The notes beneath the pieces were generated by a model. That model was not told where the DNA came from and ran no database searches. It saw nothing but the letters and a program-made list of their open reading frames with translations. This document shows positions 19,424 to 37,541 of a stretch of 64,000 bases of DNA, piece after piece. The stretch comes from a phage, in the sequence record PZ452611.1; one strand, given 5' to 3'. Position numbers and translations under genes: made by a program. Position 1 is the stretch's first letter. The number at the start of each line of letters is the position of its first letter.

Positions 19424-20323
19424 ATGGCAAATCTTAACAGTTTTAGTACTCGGTGGCAACAGGATATAACAACCAATCTCTCAGCTGGAGACATCCTTTC
19501 TGCAATTTACGAGGCTTTAGATGCTAAAGCTACTTCAAAAGCGGTTTGTACCAACCCACTAATTCCTATAGTGATGAAGGTTATTGAGCGTAGATTGGTA
19601 TCTGGGTCTGATAAGTGGACATATTTAGATAATGAAGGACACACCTATTCCAACGGGTATGTCGATATAAAAGTAGAATACGCGGTATCATACCGCCGGA
19701 GCGGTTCTGTGACTTTCAACTTTTCTGGAGGTTTCCGATCTCTGGCAACTTCACCTTTTGTTTCCTCAGAAGAGAAGTTTGAACTTCCGTTCCTTTGGAT
19801 GATGGCTAACGCGACAGGAAAAACTCCCGTGAGTATTCGCGTAAAATACAACTACAACGGGTCCAGTAAGATCTATGCCGAGAGTATCTCAGCAAGTTTT
19901 TATTTTGTGATGGGAGATGGAATCCTCAAGCATATAAAGATGTGCGATATGCACGATGTTATAAATGAAGTGACTGATAAGAATGTTCTGGTGAAGGACC
20001 TCAACAATTTCTATACACCTGGGGACTATTACGTCAACCTCCCACTGTGCATCTTTAATGCCGCACACCCTTTGGGTGAATACCTGATCGTTAATAGTGA
20101 CATTGCTAACAACATTTTTGAACTGGCAAGAGTACAAAATGAGGTATTGACATCCTGCAAGAGTGGTGATAAATTCACTGATGAAGAGATGGGCGTTTTA
20201 GAAATGATGGGGTATAAATGCAGTCTTTGGGTAGATGAGGTGTTTAATGACTACATTTACGGACAGGATATTTACCCGTTAAAGAAGTATACTGATACAA
20301 GTTTAATTTATGCGGGGATTTGA
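19424..20323 (+). CDS. hypothetical protein
   Basis: 299-aa ORF, RBS aggag 8 nt upstream. Confidence 0.5.
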   Translation: MANLNSFSTRWQQDITTNLSAGDILSAIYEALDAKATSKAVCTNPLIPIVMKVIERRLVSGSDKWTYLDNEGHTYSNGYVDIKVEYAVSYRRSGSVTFNFSGGFRSLATSPFVSSEEKFELPFLWMMANATGKTPVSIRVKYNYNGSSKIYAESISASFYFVMGDGILKHIKMCDMHDVINEVTDKNVLVKDLNNFYTPGDYYVNLPLCIFNAAHPLGEYLIVNSDIANNIFELARVQNEVLTSCKSGDKFTDEEMGVLEMMGYKCSLWVDEVFNDYIYGQDIYPLKKYTDTSLIYAGI

Positions 20324-21652: not shown

Positions 21653-21922
21653 ATGTTATACCAGCAATATGAACTTCGTGCAGAAAAAGAGTTAAATTTT
21701 GACAAAGATATTCACAGATATTATTATGGGAAAGTTAGAGGGCAAGCAAGAAAGTGTACTCCAACACTCTTTTATGCCAGCAGACGACTAGCGCCAGAAG
21801 AGGCAACAGCAGAAAGGGTTGCGTACAACTGGAGAGTCACGTATGATATTGACAGATCCGATGTGATATCTGTTTTGGAAAACTTTGAAAACACTTACAC
21901 ACAAGTAGAGGACTTTTACTAA
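21653..21922 (+). CDS. hypothetical protein
   Basis: 89-aa ORF, RBS aaggag upstream. Confidence 0.45.
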   Translation: MLYQQYELRAEKELNFDKDIHRYYYGKVRGQARKCTPTLFYASRRLAPEEATAERVAYNWRVTYDIDRSDVISVLENFENTYTQVEDFY

Positions 21923-23106
21923 TGTCAAGAAACGTATTCGAAAGTGGTCAAATCACTGTCCGTGAGTTGCCAGCTATTATTCAGTTTGCCCAACGTCATA
22001 GCCGATCTGTCCTAATTTTGGGACCAATGGGTGTGGGTAAAAGCCAGGTGATGAAGCAGATCGCTGATAATATGTTCGGTGAGCGAGATGACAACCTTGT
22101 TGACGTGCGACTGTCAGATAAAGATCCTGCCGACTTATCTGGGCTACCTATCCCTGTAGAAGCGGATGGAACTACACGTACAGTGTTTGCAATTCCAGAA
22201 TTTTGGCCTGCGGATCCTGACTGGAGCGGAATTATCTTTCTGGATGAGCTCACTCATGCAGATAACTACCTGCAAAAGGTTGCAATGCAAATTATGCTTG
22301 ACCACAAGTGCGGTACCTATGCATTCCCTAAGGGTTCTGTTTTTGTGGCTGCTGGTAACCGTTCTACAGATGGTGCGGTTCTTTCGGCGCTCGAAGCCCC
22401 TCTGGCTAACCGTTTTATCATTGTAGAGGTTACAAGCAATGCAGAGGTGTTTATTGAGGACTACGCATTCCTTAATGGGGTGCACTCCTCTGTAATTGGA
22501 TATCTGAAAAGAGTTCCATCAGCTATCGATAATTATGAGGCCATGGCTGAGATTAATTGTCCATCTTTTGCCACACCGCGATCTTGGGTTGCTGCATCTG
22601 ATATCTTGCACGATTTTGACAGCGGTATTATTTCTGACGCTATGGCCCGTGTTCTTCTGCAAGGTGCTATTGGTCACACTGCAGCGGTAGAGATCTGGAC
22701 TTACCACACCAAGAAACGCAACTTACCGGAAATCGGTCGGATTATGGCAGGAGGTTGCAAAGAATACGTAGGTCCTAAACAGCCAGACATCTTGTGGATT
22801 CTTGGATCTGAAGGTTGCATCGCTATTCGTAATATGATGGAAAATGCAAGTATCTCCGACGAAGATCTTGTTAGCTGTGTGGCAAACTTTCTCGATTTCC
22901 TTTGGGAAAACTTCAAGGACGAGAACCGAGATTTTGTATTTTCAGTCTTTATGGCGATGATGAAACCTAATGCCTTAGGAAATGCCTTGCTTATCGGTAA
23001 AGGTCGTGACAAGATCGTTGCTCAGCTGATCAAAGCATACCCAAACCTGATGAAGATTGTAAAAGAGTTTGGTGAAGAGTTTAGCGCCATTTTGGCTAAA
23101 GCTTAA
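21922..23106 (+). CDS. AAA+ ATPase, MoxR/CbbQ-like
   Basis: 394-aa ORF; Walker A LILGPMGVGKSQ, Walker B IIFLDELTHA, downstream sensor/Arg-finger-like region (AAGNRSTDGAVL); size and motif spacing typical of MoxR-class ATPases. Confidence 0.65.
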   Translation: MSRNVFESGQITVRELPAIIQFAQRHSRSVLILGPMGVGKSQVMKQIADNMFGERDDNLVDVRLSDKDPADLSGLPIPVEADGTTRTVFAIPEFWPADPDWSGIIFLDELTHADNYLQKVAMQIMLDHKCGTYAFPKGSVFVAAGNRSTDGAVLSALEAPLANRFIIVEVTSNAEVFIEDYAFLNGVHSSVIGYLKRVPSAIDNYEAMAEINCPSFATPRSWVAASDILHDFDSGIISDAMARVLLQGAIGHTAAVEIWTYHTKKRNLPEIGRIMAGGCKEYVGPKQPDILWILGSEGCIAIRNMMENASISDEDLVSCVANFLDFLWENFKDENRDFVFSVFMAMMKPNALGNALLIGKGRDKIVAQLIKAYPNLMKIVKEFGEEFSAILAKA

Positions 23107-23509: not shown

Positions 23510-23536
23510 CCCCGCTTCGGCGGGGATTTTCTATTT
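23510..23536 (+). terminator. putative intrinsic terminator
   Basis: CCCCGC-ttcg-GCGGGG tetraloop hairpin followed by ATTTTCTATTT. Confidence 0.6.
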
Positions 23537-23545
23537 GGAGTTATT

Positions 23546-24046
23546 GTGAAAATTAAGATCTTTGCTATTATTTTGAGCGCATTTTTATCGCTGCCTGTTG
23601 TTGCAGCACCAAAACAAAAAGTATACCATACTTGCAAGCCATCAGATACTAAGGAAAACATTCTAGCATGCAATATCTACAGGGAAGCTAGAGGGGATGG
23701 CACGATGGGTATGCTGGCATCTGGGTTTGCCACCCTAAACAGGAAATCTCACCCCAAATACCCAGACACCATAAGAAAGATTGTCTACCAACCTAACCAG
23801 TTTTCGTGGACAAACCACGGCAAAACTTTTAAGGTGACAGAAAAAGATTCATGGGATCACGCTAAAAGTCTTGCAAAGATGCTTCTAAAGGTCTATAATA
23901 ACAACCATGTTGCATACATGGCTATGGACATAACAGGTGGAGCAACACACTACCATACAACCAAAGTACGACCGAAATGGGCAAAAAAGATGCAGAGGAC
24001 AGCTCAATTCGGGAGCCATATCTACTACAAGGAGCGCAATAAATGA
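23546..24046 (+). CDS. SleB-like cell-wall hydrolase with N-terminal signal peptide
   Basis: 166-aa ORF (GTG start after ggag); N-terminal MKIKIFAIILSAFLSLPVVAAP signal-like segment; NIYREARGDG...LNRKSHPKYPDTIRKIVYQPNQFSW matches the conserved core of the SleB/Hydrolase_2 family. Confidence 0.55.
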   Translation: MKIKIFAIILSAFLSLPVVAAPKQKVYHTCKPSDTKENILACNIYREARGDGTMGMLASGFATLNRKSHPKYPDTIRKIVYQPNQFSWTNHGKTFKVTEKDSWDHAKSLAKMLLKVYNNNHVAYMAMDITGGATHYHTTKVRPKWAKKMQRTAQFGSHIYYKERNK

Positions 24047-26025
24047 TTGTAAACAGTAATGAAACTAAAGCAGTGCTAACCGGAAATATGGAGGTCACCA
24101 GGGGCTCAATTTCTCTTAACAAAGAGACTTTTGGGCTAATCATTAAAGGGATTTACGAAGATAAGGTGCTGGCAAGCTGCCGTGAACCAATCTTCAATGC
24201 TGTGGACTCTCATGTTGAGTCTGGACGGGGTGATGTGCCGATCATTATTCACTCTCCTACAGACCTTGAACCATACTTCTTTGTGCAGGACGTTGGATTG
24301 GGCATGTCAGAAGAGATGGTCCGCAACACTTTCATGAACCTCGGTGAGTCAACCAAGCGCAACAGCAACGCTCTGGTTGGCAATAAAGGTGTTGGTTCAA
24401 AGGCTCCGTTCAGCATGGTGGACACTTTCGATGTTATCAGTGTGCACAATGGTATTGAAAGCACATATCTATTGTTCTTGGATCAGGGTATCCCAAACGT
24501 TACCAAGATCCGCGAGCGGAAGACTGAAGAGCACAACGGGGTAAAAGTTCAGTTCCATGTTAAGAAAGAGCATGTCCTGAAATATCGCACTGCTATTGCA
24601 TCGTGCTTACGCTATGCGAAGTTTCCGTTCATCGTCACCGATCCCATGACCAGTAAGATGTTAGAAGGTGACAAGGTTGAGGCACAGTATCATTACGAGA
24701 AGGATGGCTGGAAAATGACCATCCTGAAAGGTTATACCAGTTCTGATGAGAGCCGTGTTGTGATGGGTCACCAACCTTACCGCTCCAAGTTCCTGGAGAC
24801 ATTGACCGATTACCCTGCAATCTGCGTGGAAATTCCTATTGGGGATTGCAATATTAACCCTGGGCGTGAATGGACCATAGAGGGCCATGACGACGGTGGA
24901 TTCCAGGATCGCCTGGAGGCATTTGTCAAAGAAGGTATACGTCTTCGCGGGGCAGAAGTTGTTGCAGAACTGGAGACGGCAAAAACCTCCGCAGAAGCAC
25001 GTGAAATGATGAAGAATAGTGGAGTGTTCGGACACATCTTCGGCAAGAACTTTATGTGGAACCGTTGGGAAGAAACAGGGCTTGGCGACTTAGGCGATTG
25101 TGAAATTTTCGCTGGCGGCTTAAATAAAGGCCGCATAGGCTATGCTCGTTACGGAAAGTCGGAGTTCTTACGAGGTGTATACCTTGTATTTAACGACGGA
25201 GACGGCAAATATAACCGGAATAAGTGTAACTACTTAAGCGAGATCACCGGACGCAACGTTTTCTATTGCCGGAACACGGATCTGGTGAAAGAGTTTAAAG
25301 AGGCGGCACACCATCCGTTCTTTGCAGATACGGTCAAATTGTTATCGGAGCTTCCACGCCGACCTGCGAAGAAAGGTGAAACCAAAACTCGTTACGAGCC
25401 AGGCTACTGGGTTAAGAAGCTTAGAGAGGATGGCTACTTCCATCGTGAGCGCCTCACGAAGGCAGAGTTCAAGAAGATTAAGCATTGCATCCCTTATGAG
25501 GGGGATATCCAACGGGGAAGCTGCTGGCTGGGCCAGATGAGTAACATCTACCAGCAAAATTATGACCGTGTGCGTGCTGCACTCCAGATTCCTGAAGGTG
25601 AAGATCTGTACCTGGTATCAGAATCTCGTCTGCTTTGGACTGATCCTGATTGCCAGTATGTTACAGAGAAGAATGTGGAACATTTGTTGAAAGAGGATGC
25701 TTGGAAATTCTTACTGACTCGCGCAGCAAATGAAACTTCATATGACAGCCTGTATAGACAATTAGGGAAAATTATCCCCATGCAGGATTTTGGAAATTAT
25801 CGGCCACATTTCCACAAGTGGGAAGGTAACACCGCGTGGAAGCACAGTGAGCTAAATCATCGTGCCAAAATCTTAATCGCCAACCGGGTTAAGTGCGGGA
25901 AGGCCTATATTGCAAGATTGGAAAAGAAATATCCACTTTTGAAGCATGTGGGCTTGAAATATTGGGACACTCCTGCTATGATTGAATACCGTGAACTGAT
26001 CGATACAAAGAATAACATCAAATAA
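24043..26025 (+). CDS. rIIA: rIIA-like protein
   Basis: 660-aa ORF; N-terminal GHKL/HATPase-like region (REPIFNAVDSH...DVGLGM...GNKGVGSKAPFSMVDTF) with the layout recalled for phage T4 rIIA; immediately followed by an rIIB-like gene. Confidence 0.7.
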   Translation: MIVNSNETKAVLTGNMEVTRGSISLNKETFGLIIKGIYEDKVLASCREPIFNAVDSHVESGRGDVPIIIHSPTDLEPYFFVQDVGLGMSEEMVRNTFMNLGESTKRNSNALVGNKGVGSKAPFSMVDTFDVISVHNGIESTYLLFLDQGIPNVTKIRERKTEEHNGVKVQFHVKKEHVLKYRTAIASCLRYAKFPFIVTDPMTSKMLEGDKVEAQYHYEKDGWKMTILKGYTSSDESRVVMGHQPYRSKFLETLTDYPAICVEIPIGDCNINPGREWTIEGHDDGGFQDRLEAFVKEGIRLRGAEVVAELETAKTSAEAREMMKNSGVFGHIFGKNFMWNRWEETGLGDLGDCEIFAGGLNKGRIGYARYGKSEFLRGVYLVFNDGDGKYNRNKCNYLSEITGRNVFYCRNTDLVKEFKEAAHHPFFADTVKLLSELPRRPAKKGETKTRYEPGYWVKKLREDGYFHRERLTKAEFKKIKHCIPYEGDIQRGSCWLGQMSNIYQQNYDRVRAALQIPEGEDLYLVSESRLLWTDPDCQYVTEKNVEHLLKEDAWKFLLTRAANETSYDSLYRQLGKIIPMQDFGNYRPHFHKWEGNTAWKHSELNHRAKILIANRVKCGKAYIARLEKKYPLLKHVGLKYWDTPAMIEYRELIDTKNNIK

Positions 26026-26035
26026 GGAGACCAAG

Positions 26036-27241
26036 ATGATTTTCATCTACGAACATTTCAAAACCCGTAAAGAAGCACGAGACCGCCGTGCAGAACTTGA
26101 GAAGAAGGGTTTCACATGTGCCATTGAGAAAGGCGACACAACCTGGACACTGGCAGTTGGTGCCCCAGAGTTGTTCGATCCTGACCGTGACAGCGTCTGC
26201 TACACCCGTGAGGATTTTGAAACCCGCGAAGAGGCCCGTTTATTTCGATACGGTCTGGAAGATAACGGTAAGTACGCTATGATCTTAGATTTAGGCGAAG
26301 GTTCCGTTAAACGTTGGGGCGTGGTATACCCACTGTGTGTTGTTCACGGTGTGGGGTTCACTGGGGTAGCAATCAAGTCAGAAGAACCTTTAGTAGAAGT
26401 CAAAGATCCGGTGCTGGAGGTGGTGAGCAGTGTGTCTCAGCAACAGACTCGAAGCATCGAGCCTTTGGTAGTTATTTGTGGTGAACTCCTCCAGATCACC
26501 TGCAACGAAGGCATTTTTGAAATTCGCCGCAGCGAAAGTGAGGAAGTTTACCAGAAAGTCTTCGACCATATCTCTGTTCAGGAATATGATGAGGCAATTG
26601 GTGAAATCCTTGTCTGGCTGGAACGCAAGAATGAGTTCACCACACTTGCAGACAACCTGATCATGAAAGATGGTAAGCTCTACTACTACGGTGTAGAGAT
26701 GCGATCCACCATTGCAAAGAAAATTGAGAAAGATTATGCAGACGGAACGCTGGATGACCGCTATGTGAAATTCCTCGTTCGCCTGCTACGCAATCCTTCT
26801 GCAAAATCTGTAAACATGCTCTACGATTTTATGCAGGCCAACGATATCCAGATTGCAGAAGATGGTCGAATCATTTGCTACAAAGGGGTTCAGTTTAACG
26901 GCAGCAAGTGGGTGGATTGGCACAGTGGTAAAGTTCCACAATACCAGGGTGCTTTTGTATCCATGCCTCGTAACTTTGTAGAGGATGATCCGGAAGCTGC
27001 GTGCTCCTATGGCTTACACTGCGCCAGCAAAGAGTATGCAAAGAGCTACGGCACTGTAATGACTGTTATGGTTGATCCTGCAGATGTGGTTAGTGTGCCA
27101 TACCAACACAATAGCGCTAAGTGCCGTGCATGCCGCTATGAGATTGTGGTAGCTCCGGAAGCACGCAAAGATGGAGACCCTATTGAATATGTAGTTGATC
27201 GTGACGGTAACACTATCGACATTCTTTACGAGGAGGCGTAA
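26036..27241 (+). CDS. rIIB: rIIB-like protein
   Basis: 401-aa ORF; C-terminal segments LYDFMQANDIQIAEDG, GLHCASKEYA and VDPADVVSVPYQHNSAKCRACRYEIV parallel conserved rIIB blocks as recalled from T4 rIIB. Confidence 0.7.
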   Translation: MIFIYEHFKTRKEARDRRAELEKKGFTCAIEKGDTTWTLAVGAPELFDPDRDSVCYTREDFETREEARLFRYGLEDNGKYAMILDLGEGSVKRWGVVYPLCVVHGVGFTGVAIKSEEPLVEVKDPVLEVVSSVSQQQTRSIEPLVVICGELLQITCNEGIFEIRRSESEEVYQKVFDHISVQEYDEAIGEILVWLERKNEFTTLADNLIMKDGKLYYYGVEMRSTIAKKIEKDYADGTLDDRYVKFLVRLLRNPSAKSVNMLYDFMQANDIQIAEDGRIICYKGVQFNGSKWVDWHSGKVPQYQGAFVSMPRNFVEDDPEAACSYGLHCASKEYAKSYGTVMTVMVDPADVVSVPYQHNSAKCRACRYEIVVAPEARKDGDPIEYVVDRDGNTIDILYEEA

Positions 27242-28611
27242 TGGAAAAAGGGCAGTATGATGTAGGCACAGATGCTGCCCTCGTTGCAATCATGAGCGGT
27301 GAGAATGTCTTCGTTTCAGGACCCGCAGGTTGTGGGAAGACGTACCTCATCAACATGATCCAGTCAATGTATGGAGACTCTTGCATAACGGTTGCCCCGA
27401 CAGGGGTAGCCGCTTTAAACGTTAATGGAGCAACAGCACACCGAACCTTCGATCTTGCAGCAGGTGTGAGCATGGAGTCGGACTGGACCGCAATAAGGGC
27501 AAAAACAGCAAAGCCTTTGAAAAGCAAGGCATTTACCATCCTAATTATCGATGAAATCTCTATGATCCGTGCTGATAAGTTTATAGAGATGGATAGGAAA
27601 CTCCGCTTCCTTCGAAAAAATGACAAACCTTTCGGGGGCATACAGGTCATATTGTTTGGCGATTTTTACCAGGCACCTCCTGTTGTCTCTTCTATGGAGA
27701 AGGAAGCCTACTTCAACTTCTACCATACGGACCTGTGTTGCTATACCGAATCTTGGAAAGAGCTTGACCTCCACAACATAGCCCTAATAGATCAGTTCCG
27801 ACAGGAGTCTATTCGATTTGCTACAATGCTCAACTGTGTTCGTGAGGGTCGTCGCATAAAAGAGGTTGTAGCAGAACTTAATGCTCGCTGTTACAAAGGA
27901 GGTGTACCAACAGACGCTCTCACAATTTGCGCCACCAACAAACAAGCAGAGGAAGTGAACAGAAGGTTCTATGATGCCATCAACGCCCCAGAGAAGGTAT
28001 ACACTGGTGAAATGAAGGGTAAGTTTCCCTCCACCCTGCCAGTTGAGCAGGAGATGAAGTTGAAAATTGGCATGAAAGTTATGATAACCGCCAACGATGT
28101 TGACCCGACGCACAAAGTACCTTATTATGTTAACGGAACACGTGCTACAATTGTTAAATTTAAGAACAAGGCGGTGGTGGTAGAGCTTGAAGATGGAACA
28201 CAGGTTGACATAGAGCAGAGGTTGTGGGAGAATAACGAGTATAAGCCATCTCAGAGATACAACATTGCAGAAAGGAAGATGGAGAAGTTTATAGAGAGGG
28301 TAGTGATTGGGTCATACAAGCAACTTCCTCTGAAATCTGGGTACGCCGTAACATCTCATAAAAGTCAAGGACTTACACTAGATTGTTACAACCTAGACCT
28401 TGGAAAGAACGGAGCTTTCTCTCCTGGGATGACGTATGTCGCTTTGAGTAGAGTTAAGACAATACAAGGAATAAACTTGTTGCGTCCACTAAGAGAGGTT
28501 GACATTATTGTTGACCCGCGAGTCGTAGAGTTTTACAATACAACATTCCCTGACTTAGACAAAATTGTCAGGAAAGATTTTGAAACCAGAGCAGAAGAGG
28601 GGGACGTATGA
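27241..28611 (+). CDS. SF1B DNA helicase, Dda/RecD/Pif1-like
   Basis: 456-aa ORF; Walker A GPAGCGKTY, Walker B ILIIDEISMI, helicase motif VTSHKSQGLTLD, C-terminal LSRVKT. Confidence 0.7.
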   Translation: MEKGQYDVGTDAALVAIMSGENVFVSGPAGCGKTYLINMIQSMYGDSCITVAPTGVAALNVNGATAHRTFDLAAGVSMESDWTAIRAKTAKPLKSKAFTILIIDEISMIRADKFIEMDRKLRFLRKNDKPFGGIQVILFGDFYQAPPVVSSMEKEAYFNFYHTDLCCYTESWKELDLHNIALIDQFRQESIRFATMLNCVREGRRIKEVVAELNARCYKGGVPTDALTICATNKQAEEVNRRFYDAINAPEKVYTGEMKGKFPSTLPVEQEMKLKIGMKVMITANDVDPTHKVPYYVNGTRATIVKFKNKAVVVELEDGTQVDIEQRLWENNEYKPSQRYNIAERKMEKFIERVVIGSYKQLPLKSGYAVTSHKSQGLTLDCYNLDLGKNGAFSPGMTYVALSRVKTIQGINLLRPLREVDIIVDPRVVEFYNTTFPDLDKIVRKDFETRAEEGDV

Positions 28612-31596: not shown

Positions 31597-32361
31597 TTGA
31601 AATTCATCTACAAAGAACACTACCACAAAGGTGTTGTGTGGAGTCTATTTGACGGGTCTGGTGGTGCAGTTATTGACTGGGCAAAAGCTGGGTACCTGTG
31701 CCTGTGCTTTAATGCAGAAGGTGCTGACCACGGCAGTTATGCAGAGGTGATAACCGATCATCCTAACATTCACTATGTGGATTATTGGATTGACCCATGG
31801 TTCCCTCAGGAAACTTTTTGCATGTATCCAGCTCCAGACTTTATTCTTGCATTTCCTCCGTGCACGCATTTAGCGGTATCAGGTGCTGCACATTTTAAGA
31901 AAAAGCTGGCTAAGGATCCTTTGATCCAAATTAATGCTGTAAAGGATGCTCGGGTTGCGGAAGAGTTGGGAGAGATTTACGATTGCCCGTGGCATGTAGA
32001 GAATCCTGTAGGGGTTATGTCCACACTGTGGCGAAAACCTGATTACCGTTTTCATCCTTCGGATTATGGTGGGTATTTACCGGAGGATGATGTAAACCCC
32101 TGGTTTCCTGAATTTATAGCTCCACGTGATGCCTATCCAAAAATAACTTGCGGCTGGATAGGCAATGGATTTATAATCCCGGCCACAAAACCTGTCCCGC
32201 AAATAGTTGACGCGGTTAGCGGGTATTCCATGCAACACGCCAAGCTGGGTGGAAAGAGTGCAAGAACGAAGATGATCCGAAGCCTCACGCCACGTGGCTG
32301 GGCAAAAGCCGTATTCTTAGCAAACGAGCCTGTAGTAAGGAGCAGAATTAATGGGAAGTAA
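31597..32361 (+). CDS. short C5-cytosine-methyltransferase-like protein
   Basis: ORF 31567-32361; TTG at 31597 follows AGGAGA by 7 nt (upstream GTG sits inside the terminator hairpin); motifs LFDGSGG (AdoMet motif I-like), FPPCTHLAVSG (motif IV-like, catalytic Cys), HVENPVG (motif VI ENV-like); only ~255 aa. Confidence 0.5.
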   Translation: MKFIYKEHYHKGVVWSLFDGSGGAVIDWAKAGYLCLCFNAEGADHGSYAEVITDHPNIHYVDYWIDPWFPQETFCMYPAPDFILAFPPCTHLAVSGAAHFKKKLAKDPLIQINAVKDARVAEELGEIYDCPWHVENPVGVMSTLWRKPDYRFHPSDYGGYLPEDDVNPWFPEFIAPRDAYPKITCGWIGNGFIIPATKPVPQIVDAVSGYSMQHAKLGGKSARTKMIRSLTPRGWAKAVFLANEPVVRSRINGK

Positions 32362-34429
32362 ATTTATGGCATCTGCATACAACCGTTTCGGTGAGCCAAA
32401 CCCGAAAGCAACTAAGTATAAAAGTGGGGGAAGTGTGAAACGAGACTATCGTGATGAAAAAGAGGTTGAAACTGTAGAGACTGTTTTAGAAAATACTAAA
32501 ATCGTCCCTGTCCCACAACAAAATATCGGTCTGATGGCTGCACAATATTTTGGTGTGCGATCAGCATTGTCCCAAGAAGACGGTGTGACAGTTACTGCAA
32601 CATATTTCCCATATTACGACCGCTACGGGAATCTGTCCGGTTTCAAAAAGCGTGACTGGACGATCCCCAAAGAGCAACGTGGGCACTTTACGACGGTTGG
32701 GATCGTAAAGGCTAACTCCCAAATGTTTGGGCAAAAGCTGTGTGCATCTTCTAACAACCGTAAGCAGATTAACGTTTGTGAGGGGGAAGGCGATGTTATT
32801 GCAGCATGGCAGGCTGCATATCAGATACAAGTAAAAGGGATTCTCACCAACGCTAAAGCCCCGGCAAAGGTGAAACAGTGGGCTAAAGAGGTCCAGGACG
32901 GGATCGATGCAGTTATCAACGGGGGTGATCTGGCAGGAAAACCCTGCCTGCCTTTTGTTGGAATTAACTGTGGATGTGCAAACGCAGTAGATACTTTTGC
33001 AAACAATGAGAAATTTATCCGTAGCTACGGAACAGTGGTCCTTGCAATGGACAACGATGCAGCTAACGAGGTAGAGAAGCAAAAACACGTTATCAAAGGT
33101 GTTGAAGCCACACATAATATCGCGGCATTTTTGATGGCGGATAACGTTTACCACGTGGAATACCCCAGTGAGGTAAACGACCCTGACGGTGTAAAAGATA
33201 TCCGTGACATGCTGAAGGCTAAAAAGCTGGAAGATATTGTCAACATGTTCCGTCACCCAGTCAAATATGTGCCCGATGCTGTATCTGATTTAGAAGACTT
33301 CTCCATTGAATCTCTTCGTAAGAAGACTTCTAATGGCGTAGATATCAGCGCGGAGTTCCCTAAATTGCAGAAGATGCTGAAAGGACTCCACAAAGGCACC
33401 TTGATGATGCTGACAGGCCCATCTGGCGGTGGTAAAACAACTGTAGCCAAGAAACTAGAACACTGCATTGCAAAATACTTGATGGATCCGACATGCCCTA
33501 AAGCCGATGATTATGAAGAGGATGATCGCCTGTGTCTGATTCACCTTGAAGAGGACCCTGAGGAAGCAATTAACTCTCTATACGCCAACCAGTTGGGGTT
33601 TGATGTTAAAGAGTTTGTTGAAGACCCTAGTCAGTTCCTGACTGATCAGGAGCATGCTGAGATTCACCAATCTTGGGCCAAGGCTGGAAAAATCAAAGTG
33701 TTCAAGCATTTTGGGTCTATTCCTGTAGATGAGTTGATCACTAAGCTTAAACAAATGGTGTGTCTGTATCACTGCCGTTACATTGTGCTGGATCACCTGT
33801 CCATGGTAATTTCAGGGCTTAATGTTAAGGATGAGCGCAAAGAACTTGACATGGCTATGACGCAACTAGCCGCGTTCTGCAAGCAGTTTAATGTATTTAT
33901 CTTGGTGATCGCTCACCTGAAACGCATAGAGATTGTGCCTCCAAAGGACAAGGATGGGAATCCGTTACCTTTCTGGTATCCTGTACGAAAAGAGAACCTT
34001 CGGGGTAGTGCCGGATTGGAGCAACTTAGCTGGGTAGTTGTTGGGGTGGAGGCAGAAGAGATGGTGGATCGTTCCCGTGGACGTGTCCGACTGGTAGGTC
34101 TTAAAAACCGCCCAGCAAAAACGTTAGGCATTGCGGATACCTTAGTTATGGATCCCCACACAGGTAAGTTCCATGATGCCAGCAACTGGTACTGGGACAA
34201 AGAAATGCAGATGTTCACAGACGGCGAAGGTGGGGAGGTTGTTTGGAGACCTCAAGCTATGTTTGAGGATCAAGGGCACGCAGTTGTAGAAACACCTGTA
34301 GGTAGGGTTGTGGCTGATAAGGTTGTAACTCCTACTGTTAACCCTGTTGACACACAAGAAGACCTCCCGTATGATGATCCGTCCTCTGACCATGTTCCCG
34401 GTTTTGAGGATGATGAAACACCTTTTTAA
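32351..34429 (+). CDS. DNA primase-helicase (Toprim domain fused to DnaB/gp4-like helicase)
   Basis: 692-aa ORF; Toprim motifs CEGEGDV and LAMDNDAAN; helicase Walker A LTGPSGGGKTT, Walker B IVLDHLSMV, motif H4-like RGSAGLEQ. Confidence 0.7.
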   Translation: MGSKFMASAYNRFGEPNPKATKYKSGGSVKRDYRDEKEVETVETVLENTKIVPVPQQNIGLMAAQYFGVRSALSQEDGVTVTATYFPYYDRYGNLSGFKKRDWTIPKEQRGHFTTVGIVKANSQMFGQKLCASSNNRKQINVCEGEGDVIAAWQAAYQIQVKGILTNAKAPAKVKQWAKEVQDGIDAVINGGDLAGKPCLPFVGINCGCANAVDTFANNEKFIRSYGTVVLAMDNDAANEVEKQKHVIKGVEATHNIAAFLMADNVYHVEYPSEVNDPDGVKDIRDMLKAKKLEDIVNMFRHPVKYVPDAVSDLEDFSIESLRKKTSNGVDISAEFPKLQKMLKGLHKGTLMMLTGPSGGGKTTVAKKLEHCIAKYLMDPTCPKADDYEEDDRLCLIHLEEDPEEAINSLYANQLGFDVKEFVEDPSQFLTDQEHAEIHQSWAKAGKIKVFKHFGSIPVDELITKLKQMVCLYHCRYIVLDHLSMVISGLNVKDERKELDMAMTQLAAFCKQFNVFILVIAHLKRIEIVPPKDKDGNPLPFWYPVRKENLRGSAGLEQLSWVVVGVEAEEMVDRSRGRVRLVGLKNRPAKTLGIADTLVMDPHTGKFHDASNWYWDKEMQMFTDGEGGEVVWRPQAMFEDQGHAVVETPVGRVVADKVVTPTVNPVDTQEDLPYDDPSSDHVPGFEDDETPF

Positions 34430-34487: not shown

Positions 34488-36917
34488 ATGAGCATGTGGT
34501 CTTTCGATTTTGAGTCATCCGGTTTGCTGGAAGACCCAGATCTTTATTATCACTGCGGCCTGTTTAAAGAGTTGAATAAGAACCGTTTTATGCTGTTCCT
34601 TCCTCTGAATGACCGCACACACTACTCCGAGGAGGATATAGAGAAGGCTAAGAACTTTATTCTGGCAAAGAAAACTCTTTATAAGGATTTTGAAGTTCGC
34701 ATAGCAGATTTTTCAGAGTTGGAAGGTTGGCTTACAGGCAATTCTGACTGGTCACCCACAGCTTTGAACTGCCACAACTGCTACAGCTACGACTTTATGC
34801 TGATGGAGAGATTGTCCGGTATTCATTTTGATATGTTCCGTGATCCTAAGTGCATGGGGACTATCAACGACCACCAGGTTAATCTGTTTGATACGTTGGC
34901 GATGAGCCGAATCTTGTGGCCTGATCGCCCTTTACCAAAAGGTTGTCCGGACTCTGTATTCAACCCGGTTACTAAGAAAATGCAGCCTGTTGGTCCTCAC
35001 GGCCTTATGGCATGGGGCTACGCCCTTGGTAACCAGAAAGTTCAAATTGATGACTGGCGCGATCTTCCGTTGTGGAAGTATGTGGATCGTGTATTCGAGG
35101 ACGTTATCATCCAGGAGCTGCTCTGGAAAGAGCTGGTAGCGGAATCAAAAGGTGTATTCTACGGCAAATCTGACATGCAGAACTTTATGTACGATCCAGC
35201 CAAAGAGAAGCCGAAAGGGTTCAAGAAGATCACCTGGAAGAACGCATTACGTCGAGGCATGCTGCAGCACTTCCTGATGGAGCTGCAGGCCCGTCAGGGT
35301 GTATACTTCGACATAGATGGAGCTATTGCTTTACGTGACCGTTGCGATGCGTGGATGAAAGAAATCGCTGATCGTGTTGAACCACAACTACCTTTAAAAG
35401 AGCTGTCAATGTCTCAGCGGCCCAAGTTCCCTGAAAAGCCGTTTAACCAAGACGGGACAATCTCTAATAATGGTTGGAAATGGTTAAAAGATAAGCTTGG
35501 CTATCCTGTAGACATGAGTGCTTTAGAGTTCAAAGCCCCGCCTAAGCGAGCATTTACCTCTACAGGAGATGTCAGCAAGATGGGGATAAAATGGTGTGAA
35601 GAGATGGGCTGCAAAGACCCCGATAAGATGGCTGATTTCTTGAGAGGCTATATTAAGGGCACCTCCACACCACAACCCTTACCTAAAGAGCTGATGGATC
35701 AGGCAATAAGTGATCTGCAGCAGAAGCGAATGCCTGACTGCAAGATACCTATGAAAATCAGCAATCAGGACGACATCAAGCGATACCTAATCAGTGCTGG
35801 TTGGCTCCCAACAATGTGGAGAACTAAAGATGTAACTAAAGACAGCAAGAAGAAAGCTTTACCTGATGCAGATGTTGATGCACGAGTATATGCATATATG
35901 GACGAGCTTTTGGAGTCAGAGTATTGTGACCTAATTATCAACTTCTGGAACAAAACTGATGCTAAGTTCCAGACAACCGTGCACAAGTTCCGAAGCTTTC
36001 CTAACTCCGAAAGGATTAAAAAGGAAGTATTCGGGAAAATACGTAGAAAAGCCAGGGCACTTATTACTTCTCCGCAACTGAAAGATACGTTTGGACACCT
36101 GTGTCCGAATCTTGAAAAATTGAACGGAGAGATGGCTAAAGATATCGTCTTGTGGTTATCATTGCGAAACCGCAGATCGGTCCTTGATCCAATCAAGGAG
36201 GATAAGGTTGATACTGGTCTTCTTAATCACCCACGTTTGAAGATTGACCATAAGCTTCCTGCTAAAAGCTCTGGATTAACAAACACTTCCAGACAGAAAC
36301 ACAGTATTTGTGCAAACATGCCTAAACCATCTCCTAAAGTGGTTATGGGTAAAGAGATGCGTAGTCTGTGGGGTGTTCCTCCGGGATACTTTGAGATCGG
36401 TATTGACGGGTCCAACTTAGAGCAGCTTATCGGGGCTTGGGGTGCCTTTGAGTTCGACAACGGCTTGTATTATGATGTTGTAAGTAACGGAGACGCACAC
36501 CAAAACAATGCTGAGGCATATACAAAAGTAGCAGGCAGAGAGGTGTCCCGTAACGACGGTAAACCTATCACGTATGGGGTTATGTACGGGGCACAAAAAG
36601 ATAAAGTTGCAGATATGCTGGACATCTCCCCAGAGTTGGGACAAAGGGTAATCGATGCACTCTGGGATGCCAACCCAGGTCTTAAGGGGCGCAAAGAGGA
36701 TCTGGAGAAATTCTGGGAAGCAACAGGTAAGAAGTTTATCTACTCTTTTGATGGTCATGCTATCTGGACCCGATCTAAACACTCTTTACTTAATGCATAC
36801 CAACAAAATGGCGGTGCATCGTTGTGTGACTTAGTTGGAATACTCATGCACCACCAGATGGTGAAGCGTGGGTGGTACGATGAAGGTGTTCGTCGTATTA
36901 TTTATTACCATAAATAA
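34488..36917 (+). CDS. DNA polymerase, family A, with N-terminal 3'-5' exonuclease domain
   Basis: 809-aa ORF, RBS aaggag; Exo I FDFESSG, Exo II HNCYSYDF; Pol motif A IDGSNLEQL, motif B RNDGKPITYGVMYGA (K...YG..YG), C-terminal YDE. Confidence 0.75.
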   Translation: MSMWSFDFESSGLLEDPDLYYHCGLFKELNKNRFMLFLPLNDRTHYSEEDIEKAKNFILAKKTLYKDFEVRIADFSELEGWLTGNSDWSPTALNCHNCYSYDFMLMERLSGIHFDMFRDPKCMGTINDHQVNLFDTLAMSRILWPDRPLPKGCPDSVFNPVTKKMQPVGPHGLMAWGYALGNQKVQIDDWRDLPLWKYVDRVFEDVIIQELLWKELVAESKGVFYGKSDMQNFMYDPAKEKPKGFKKITWKNALRRGMLQHFLMELQARQGVYFDIDGAIALRDRCDAWMKEIADRVEPQLPLKELSMSQRPKFPEKPFNQDGTISNNGWKWLKDKLGYPVDMSALEFKAPPKRAFTSTGDVSKMGIKWCEEMGCKDPDKMADFLRGYIKGTSTPQPLPKELMDQAISDLQQKRMPDCKIPMKISNQDDIKRYLISAGWLPTMWRTKDVTKDSKKKALPDADVDARVYAYMDELLESEYCDLIINFWNKTDAKFQTTVHKFRSFPNSERIKKEVFGKIRRKARALITSPQLKDTFGHLCPNLEKLNGEMAKDIVLWLSLRNRRSVLDPIKEDKVDTGLLNHPRLKIDHKLPAKSSGLTNTSRQKHSICANMPKPSPKVVMGKEMRSLWGVPPGYFEIGIDGSNLEQLIGAWGAFEFDNGLYYDVVSNGDAHQNNAEAYTKVAGREVSRNDGKPITYGVMYGAQKDKVADMLDISPELGQRVIDALWDANPGLKGRKEDLEKFWEATGKKFIYSFDGHAIWTRSKHSLLNAYQQNGGASLCDLVGILMHHQMVKRGWYDEGVRRIIYYHK

Positions 36918-37184
36918 CATTGTGGCTTCATAGAGTAATCTATGTCGAATAACCTCTTTAACTGCGGGAAGCCTAAACCTTATGGCAAGGTAATCCGCAA
37001 CGAAGCGCTCAAAAGAGCGAACGCTCAGAGGCCATTCCGAAAGGAAGTAGACCAGCAAGTGCGGTCGAAATGGGAGGATTCCTGTGGTTGCTTATCATAG
37101 GAATATGAGATGGTCCGATCCTACGTGAAAACGTATGGCTATGCACGTAATGGTGCGGGGTAGCTTAACGACCTACCTGAACTA

Positions 37185-37541
37185 TTGGATGAGTACCAAC
37201 TTCAAGTGCCTGACACACCGAAGTATAAGACTGTGTACACCTTCGACACAATTGAAGAACTGGAAGCATTTAAGGCAGAGCAGGAAGCCAAACTTCATGT
37301 GTTCGACGGTCATAAGTACAAAAAGGCACGCAAGGATGAGGACGGAAACGAAGTGGTTGACAGAGACGGAAACACGGTGTACGATCCTATCCTGAACGAT
37401 AACGGAAAGCTTGAACTTATCTGGAGCCCTGTGGGTGAAATGGTGGTGCATTGCTTCTGGCAAGCTTCTAAAATGATGGGAGTCCCGTTCCAGATCACAG
37501 GTGAATACTTGTGTGGTAGTAACTGGGGTGATTGTCACTAA
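37185..37541 (+). CDS. hypothetical protein
   Basis: 118-aa ORF (TTG start, no clear RBS). Confidence 0.35.
   Translation: MDEYQLQVPDTPKYKTVYTFDTIEELEAFKAEQEAKLHVFDGHKYKKARKDEDGNEVVDRDGNTVYDPILNDNGKLELIWSPVGEMVVHCFWQASKMMGVPFQITGEYLCGSNWGDCH

Follow-up and report, generated by a model that had tools for sequence, protein, structure and literature searches.

The rII locus of phage T4 has an important place in the history of genetics, and its two proteins, RIIA and RIIB, are associated with the membrane. The occurrence of rII genes outside the T4 lineage is established knowledge: according to the BASEL paper, N4-like phages and "many large myoviruses" carry rIIAB loci (PMC8594841). Adler et al. 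(2025, Nat Microbiol, PMC11879866) knocked down RIIA or RIIB by CRISPRi-ART (dCas13d) in T4, MM02, EdH4, SUSP1, and N4, which reduced plating on Escherichia coli expressing lambda RexAB and left plating on Rex-free cells unaffected. Here, we describe the rII pair in a 64,000-nucleotide stretch of phage DNA (sequence record PZ452611.1; called the window below, with all coordinates referring to it). A first-pass annotation, made from the sequence alone, had proposed an rIIA/rIIB pair between 24043 and 27241, and two adjacent plus-strand open reading frames (ORFs) fit these coordinates exactly:

24043 to 26025, plus strand: rIIA, 660 amino acids, 75.8 kDa (PHROG 612, BLASTP against T4, identity to EdH4)
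26036 to 27241, plus strand: rIIB, 401 amino acids, 45.8 kDa, isoelectric point (pI) 4.9 (PHROG 609, BLASTP against T4, identity to EdH4)

The comparisons below indicate that these genes are, very probably, a counterdefense pair directed at RexAB-type abortive infection, with RIIA as a predicted GHKL clamp ATPase and RIIB as its putative partner.

Identity and distribution of the rII pair

Both proteins matched the corresponding PHROG families. RIIA aligned over residues 1 to 658 with positions 1 to 724 of the 725 in PHROG 612 ("RIIA lysis inhibitor"; E = 4.6e-124), and RIIB matched PHROG 609 ("RIIB lysis inhibitor"; E = 1.3e-61). We also compared them directly with the T4 rIIA and rIIB reference proteins from AF158101. 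In BLASTP, RIIA was 28% identical to T4 RIIA over its first 198 residues (E = 3e-21), and RIIB was 37% identical to T4 RIIB over 204 C-terminal residues (E = 4e-39). The profile comparison that the first-pass annotation had suggested as a check gave, with hhalign, a probability of 99.95% for the RIIA family alignment (E = 5.5e-38; residues 1 to 323) and of 99.9% for RIIB (E = 2.2e-33; residues 150 to 373). The similarity to the T4 rII proteins is thus far beyond chance, and the proposed identities, including a conserved C-terminal part of RIIB, were borne out. Overall identity to T4 is low, and the C-terminal half of RIIA does not align with its T4 counterpart, whereas the order rIIA then rIIB, the roughly 320 N-terminal residues of RIIA with their GHKL motifs, and the RIIB core are shared.

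The DNA of the rII region is 100% identical to KP869103.1, E. coli O157 typing phage 5, of the species Vequintavirus V5. There were also near-full-length matches, at 91 to 99.8% identity, to 86 other records, Vequintavirus records. The pair is already known in V5-type phages and annotated in dozens of Vequintavirus genomes; many relatives (among them naam, PMBT16, APECc02, FV3, Murica, and the BASEL phages) carry the names "rIIA/rIIB" or "membrane integrity protector." The GenBank entry for typing phage 5 itself labels both proteins "hypothetical." The numbering of the phage V5 reference genome begins at the rIIA/rIIB junction, like that of T4. The same two-gene module, divergent in sequence, is found in N4/Enquatrovirus, SUSP1, Mydovirus, and Seunavirus and is common among large virulent phages.

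Sixteen "Campylobacter phage" records (GenBank MG065635-MG065690, for example, MG065659.1; host given as Campylobacter jejuni) match the rII locus as well, with 94 to 99.8% identity for those among the matches listed. The one record that we inspected carries an UNVERIFIED flag, is unannotated, and is placed in the Vequintavirinae. The Campylobacter host label of these records is probably wrong, for instance through contaminating coliphages.

Published phenotypes of near-identical orthologues

The closest phage with a published rII phenotype is EdH4 (Vequintavirus murica), whose rII genes we located in MK327930. It has the same two protein lengths as the window, with RIIA identical at 652 of 660 residues (8 differences) and RIIB at 391 of 401 (10 differences). 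At the codon level, the rIIA genes differ by 41 synonymous and 8 nonsynonymous changes and the rIIB genes by 51 synonymous and 10 nonsynonymous changes. Most differences are therefore silent, which indicates purifying selection on both genes.

EdH4 shows the Rex-dependent plating defect. The first-pass annotation had proposed plating rII mutants on lysogens that carry exclusion systems, and the EdH4 knockdowns, which lower plating specifically on RexAB hosts (PMC11879866), are the published equivalent. A second near relative, Bas54 (phage MaxBurger; 98.7% DNA identity at the rII region), has been subjected to transposon insertion sequencing. In the HIDEN-SEQ preprint (10.1101/2025.11.20.689424), 90 of 101 TA sites in rIIA and 56 of 59 in rIIB were hit, and both genes were nonessential on K-12. 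This parallels T4, in which rII is also nonessential without Rex. Both the gene identity and, by way of near-identical orthologues, the Rex phenotype can be regarded as well supported for the V5 pair.

RIIA is predicted to combine a GHKL ATPase domain with a transducer-like domain

The part of RIIA conserved with T4 corresponds to a defined module:

24043 to 25011, plus strand: GHKL ATPase and transducer-like second domain of RIIA (residues 1 to 323), the part conserved with T4 RIIA

The N-terminal ATP-binding domain of RIIA is of the GHKL type (Bergerat fold), and its N-box, G1, and G2 motifs are intact, in line with the ATPase-like N terminus claimed for RIIA in the first-pass annotation. 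Pfam HATPase_c_3 matched at 35.5 bits (cutoff, 25). In an alignment of 21 RIIA homologues with identities down to 18%, the N-box residues E48, N52, and D55, the G1 residues D83, G85, and G87, and the G2 residues G113, G116, G118, and K120 were invariant, as were S103-T104-K105 and R275-E276. R275 may be the equivalent of the transducer-domain residue that touches the gamma-phosphate.

The AlphaFold2 (AF2) model of RIIA had a mean predicted local distance difference test (pLDDT) score of 82.9. Its structural matches were TRAP1 (18.0), GRP94 (16.3), MORC2 (15.9), the T6 topoisomerase II ATPase (15.7), MutL (15.2), ParE (15.1), and SMCHD1 (14.8), with topoisomerase VI-B also among them. The matched module therefore extends beyond the ATP-binding GHKL domain into the transducer-type domain that comes after it, and it coincides with the T4-alignable residues 1 to 323. 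In Hsp90, MutL, MORC, and type II topoisomerases, this combination acts as an ATP-driven dimerizing clamp. What Iyer et al. describe for RIIA is consistent with a GHKL-plus-transducer module. We modeled residues 1 to about 320 as such a clamp ATPase; from the fold and motifs, RIIA would hydrolyze ATP and dimerize. Sequence identity to the known clamp ATPases (Hsp90/TRAP1, MutL, MORC, GyrB/ParE/topoisomerase VI-B) is only 11 to 17%, and RIIA differs from them in having no Toprim, endonuclease, CW, or client-binding domain. Sequence searches with RIIA gave nothing significant in the PDB (best E = 0.12, to TRAP1 and topoisomerase 3-beta) and only subthreshold Hsp90/sacsin matches in NCBIfam.

The C-terminal half of RIIA is lineage specific: the last 340 residues had no match in the structural searches. 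No transmembrane segment was predicted in RIIA, in which the maximum Kyte-Doolittle mean over 19 residues was 0.84.

RIIB joins a phage-specific core to a distinct N-terminal module

RIIB likewise falls into two parts:

26036 to 26344, plus strand: two beta-alpha-beta-beta repeats at the RIIB N terminus (residues 1 to 103), conserved across Vequintavirinae-type RIIB proteins
26462 to 27154, plus strand: RIIB core (residues 143 to 373), homologous to T4 RIIB residues 86 to 306

The core is strongly conserved, with about 70 invariant columns among 24 sequences, and PF26926 is precomputed on all RIIB homologues. In the structural model of RIIB, the block-mean pLDDT was mostly above 85 from about residue 225 onward and between 63 and 85 before it. 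The BFVD viral structure library returned 31 significant matches (E ≤ 0.001) from very different phages; apart from one "Transposase," the named ones were of the rIIB type, and the remainder were unnamed. Sequence searches with RIIB yielded nothing significant in the PDB (best E = 0.16, to influenza C M1) and no match in NCBIfam. To our knowledge, no RII structure has been solved.

The N-terminal part differs from that of T4. T4 RIIB residues 7 to 50 match the helix-turn-helix (HTH) families HTH_7, HTH_28, and HTH_29 (E = 6e-5 to 1.5e-4), whereas no Pfam HTH family matched the V5-type RIIB, which instead has the two repeats, with the motif F-K/E-T/S-R-x-E/D-A-R ... W. Two beta-alpha-beta-beta repeats in about 100 residues are also a feature of the SPOR domain (PF05036), and the likeness is confined to this part of RIIB. 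Pfam SPOR scored 19.3 bits with the full protein and 23.4 bits with the fragment, borderline values at a cutoff of 21, and one GenBank record labels the RIIB orthologue a "SPOR domain-containing protein." We downgraded a genuine SPOR domain as a candidate, as the match is borderline in one protein and weak or absent in relatives, and the RIIB N terminus, which starts MIFIYEHFKTRKEARDRR, has no hydrophobic signal segment for periplasmic export. The resemblance is best regarded as weak and unproven. Residues 95 to 113 were considered as a membrane anchor and rejected: the hydrophobic maximum of RIIB is a Kyte-Doolittle 19-residue mean of 1.69, the segment is not conserved among relatives, and the model shows it as a beta-strand that runs into a linker of low confidence.

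In a 498-amino-acid protein from the ENA (P0005), TPR-repeat domains are linked to a segment that shares 99% identity with 55% of RIIB; a chimera produced in assembly or gene calling is the probable explanation.

RIIA and RIIB as a probable unit

The two genes were adjacent in every lineage that we looked at, with rIIA directly 5' of rIIB on the same strand in the window and in naam, EdH4, AV124, and NINP13076. RB43 differs in carrying both proteins in one chain, a natural RIIA-RIIB fusion of 1,049 amino acids (BFVD Q56C47). In the 1,055-position PHROG 609 profile, likewise, the N-terminal part matches RIIA and the C-terminal part RIIB. Because of the RB43 fusion and the double match of this profile, RIIA and RIIB are expected to act as one unit or complex.

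Another fusion was seen in a metagenomic protein (P0072; 330 amino acids, 7 member sequences) from a 38.7-kb contig, in which RIIA residues 1 to 66 are joined in frame to the RIIB core. Its RIIA part is 98% identical to an RIIA homologue (P0124), and nearly all of RIIA and the N-terminal repeats of RIIB are missing. The protein is either the product of a naturally occurring rII deletion in a relative of V5 or an assembly artifact. The fusion is reminiscent of Benzer's r1589 deletion in T4.

Gene organization around the rII pair

The rII genes lie in the early/middle block on the plus strand, among early and replication genes and not within a lysis cassette. Their immediate surroundings comprise the following features:

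23510 to 23525, plus strand: intrinsic-terminator-like hairpin, CCCCGCTTCGGCGGGG followed by a T-run (terminator scan; a terminator is annotated at the equivalent site in the EdH4 record)
23546 to 24046, plus strand: SleB/CwlJ-type cell wall hydrolase, 166 amino acids, pI 10, with a signal-like N terminus (Pfam Hydrolase_2, PHROG 938)
27241 to 28611, plus strand: PIF1/Dda-like superfamily 1 helicase, 456 amino acids (Pfam PIF1, E = 1e-32; PHROG 325 Dda-like helicase, E = 6e-112)

The hairpin ends about 20 nucleotides 5' of the hydrolase start, which leaves no space for a promoter in between. Transcription of the hydrolase and rII genes probably reads through from the plus-strand block that starts near 19424. 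The hydrolase gene and rIIA overlap at their stop and start codons (ATGA), rIIA and rIIB are separated by 10 nucleotides, with an AGGAG ribosome-binding site for rIIB, and rIIB and the helicase gene again share stop and start nucleotides (TAATG). Translation of the four genes is thus coupled through stop and start codons that overlap or lie close together. The order hydrolase-rIIA-rIIB-helicase recurs in naam, EdH4, and Mydovirus AV124. The first three genes keep their order in Mydovirus and Seunavirus at about 35 to 40% protein identity, with the helicase next to them in AV124 also. The helicase is part of this conserved string and not of the rII pair itself. In T4, by contrast, the rII genes have topoisomerase gene 60 and denB as neighbors.

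A wall hydrolase with a signal peptide had been noted next to the pair in the first-pass annotation, and our searches agreed: Pfam Hydrolase_2 (PF07486) matched over positions 2 to 100 of 100 at 70.4 bits (cutoff, 27; E = 2.1e-19), TIGR02869 (SleB) matched below its cutoff (E = 1e-12), and the N terminus, MKIKIFAIILSAFLSLPVVAAP, is strongly hydrophobic (Kyte-Doolittle 19-residue mean of 2.29 over residues 3 to 21). PHROG labels the protein an endolysin. We rejected this assignment, given that the lysin of rV5 is gp89, a Phage_lysozyme protein (PMC3606486), and that the Bas54 orthologue is dispensable, with 32 of 36 TA sites hit and no essentiality on K-12 (10.1101/2025.11.20.689424). By analogy with these relatives, the hydrolase is probably not the main endolysin of the phage.

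A MoxR-like AAA ATPase gene (21922 to 23106, plus strand) and the PIF1/Dda-like helicase gene flank the hydrolase-rII block. In Bas54, the orthologues of both are nonessential on K-12 and conditionally essential in the uropathogenic isolate CFE303, with log2 fold changes of −7.23 for the ATPase and −6.32 for the helicase (HIDEN-SEQ; 10.1101/2025.11.20.689424). They may be host-specific counterdefense or replication-rescue genes.

The replication genes are not of the T4 type, as had been claimed at the outset. The V5-type window instead encodes a 692-amino-acid protein (32351 to 34429) with a DnaB_C helicase domain, called "primase/helicase" in the annotation of relatives, followed from 34488 onward by a family A DNA polymerase.

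A group I intron in the DNA polymerase gene

The polymerase gene (34488 to 37540) is interrupted by an ORF-less group I intron of 276 nucleotides at 36912 to 37187 on the plus strand. Rfam RF00028 (Intron_gpI) matched it over the full model at 64.7 bits (cutoff, 50; E = 4.4e-16). Exon 1 ends in ...TACCAT (U) and the intron in ...CTATTG (G). Joining 36911 to 37188 restores an ORF of 925 amino acids, the length of the uninterrupted polymerase of EdH4, in which the intron is absent; naam has a full-length gene of 2,778 nucleotides annotated. About 24 Vequintavirus genomes have an identical copy; one of them is the V5 reference, in which the polymerase gene has been annotated as separate pieces. 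JEP1, HMD-6, and SYGMH1 carry a variant with 85% identity, and polymerase genes of Vibrio phages gave matches at about 67% identity. The rV5 genome paper (PMC3606486) reports terminase introns only and does not mention one in polA.

Possible roles of the rII pair

We propose the following scheme for the RexAB counterdefense that the V5 pair very probably provides. RIIA and RIIB would be made early in infection. RIIA would be a soluble or peripheral-membrane protein, an ATP-driven clamp of the GHL type with a lineage-specific C-terminal half, and RIIB its partner, with the phage-specific core behind a lineage-specific N-terminal module that may serve as an exchangeable adaptor. The ATP-dependent clamp would work in complex with RIIB. 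The inner membrane may be where this complex acts, and its target may be RexA/RexB or the damage that they do to the membrane. The pair would thereby neutralize a RexAB-type system that otherwise depolarizes the membrane and aborts infection, and it would be dispensable in hosts without such a system.

Several points weigh against this scheme. The Rex phenotype comes from orthologues and extends to typing phage 5/V5 by analogy. In CFE303, the one clinical isolate that our comparison covered, Bas54 insertions in rIIA and rIIB were cost-free (log2 fold changes of −0.01 and −0.34, respectively; 10.1101/2025.11.20.689424). Lambda RexAB acts against very few phages, and the natural target may be another system (PMC8594841); by the account in the literature, how rII counters Rex has yet to be explained even for T4. 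RIIA residues 324 to 660 gave no alignment to T4 RIIA in pairwise hhalign, and RIIB is without the N-terminal HTH of T4, which leaves room for mechanistic differences between the two lineages. The predicted ATP hydrolysis and dimerization of RIIA draw on its fold and motifs. Neither protein has a predicted transmembrane helix, and membrane association would be carried over from the older T4 literature.

A possible, tentatively held extension is that the pair protects membrane integrity or energy state more generally, against a range of abortive-infection or pore-forming systems and not lambda RexAB in particular; its natural targets would then be other prophage exclusion systems in O157 or other E. 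coli, with lambda Rex as a laboratory readout. This would fit with the restriction of only 2 or 3 BASEL phages by lambda RexAB, whose primary role is debated (PMC8594841), and with rII modules of less than 40% identity that all counter Rex, which suggests a generic effect and not specific recognition (PMC11879866). The T4 annotation also mentions "various lysogenic strains," and rIIA and rIIB of the T-even phage Bas37 are among the genes highlighted for lower fitness in uropathogenic isolates than in K-12. The Bas54 insertions, however, had no significant cost in CFE303, and Rex is the only defense that has been tried against Vequintavirus rII. A general protector extends the RexAB explanation and is compatible with it. 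The first-pass annotation had combined anti-exclusion with lysis inhibition, and these two halves fared differently: the EdH4 knockdowns favor anti-exclusion (PMC11879866), whereas lysis inhibition reflects historical naming (PMC6832632). We consider it most improbable that the rII genes are true lysis inhibitors that control lysis timing together with the neighboring wall hydrolase. T4 rII mutants were first isolated as rapid-lysis plaque mutants, PHROG files both families under "lysis," and the hydrolase lies directly upstream in an order conserved in three Vequintavirinae genera. This adjacency is conserved synteny and gives no evidence of an rII role in lysis. Lysis inhibition in T4 is exerted by RI and RIII on holin T, with rII acting through an unrelated mechanism (PMC6832632); the rV5 endolysin is a protein other than the hydrolase, which Bas54 can lose; EdH4 rII knockdown had no plating phenotype on Rex-free cells; and the rII genes lie outside any lysis cassette.

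A role on DNA or in transcription, with RIIA as a MORC- or topoisomerase-like GHL ATPase, RIIB as a transcription factor, and the Rex and membrane effects as indirect consequences, is quite unlikely. The RIIA fold does match DNA-acting GHL ATPases (MORC2/3, MutL, and topoisomerases II, IV, and VI), T4 RIIB has its N-terminal HTH and is listed among specific transcription factors by Iyer et al. (2021, PMC7824862), the rII genes are next to a helicase gene and near replication genes, and the record of one relative calls rIIA "putative DNA-binding." Equally among the best structural matches are TRAP1 and GRP94, Hsp90 chaperones with no action on DNA, and the rII genes are dispensable for growth in Bas54. 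Vequintavirus RIIB is without an HTH, yet the near-identical EdH4 pair counters Rex; DNA binding by a T4-type HTH is therefore not the conserved function. It seems very unlikely, too, that the Vequintavirinae have rebuilt rII as an envelope-directed unit in which the SPOR-like RIIB module, the exported nonendolysin hydrolase, and RIIA cooperate, for example, in sensing or repairing pore damage from abortive infection. The pair is always preceded by a SleB-type hydrolase and, in Vequintavirus, translationally coupled to it, which is compatible with such a unit. The variable RIIB N terminus and RIIA C terminus would then, with the same low likelihood, be exchangeable targeting modules on a constant engine of ATPase plus core.

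Conserved and variable parts of rII

The V5 instance adds little to the known function of rII, as a pair 98 to 99% identical in a sister phage has already been shown to counter RexAB. What the comparison of RexAB counterdefense pairs brings out is the division of the two proteins. The conserved engine appears to consist of the clamp ATPase formed by RIIA residues 1 to 320 together with the RIIB core. The RIIA C terminus and the RIIB N terminus differ between lineages, the latter being an HTH in T4 and beta-alpha-beta-beta repeats in V5, and the HTH of T4 RIIB is unlikely to be essential for counterdefense against Rex.

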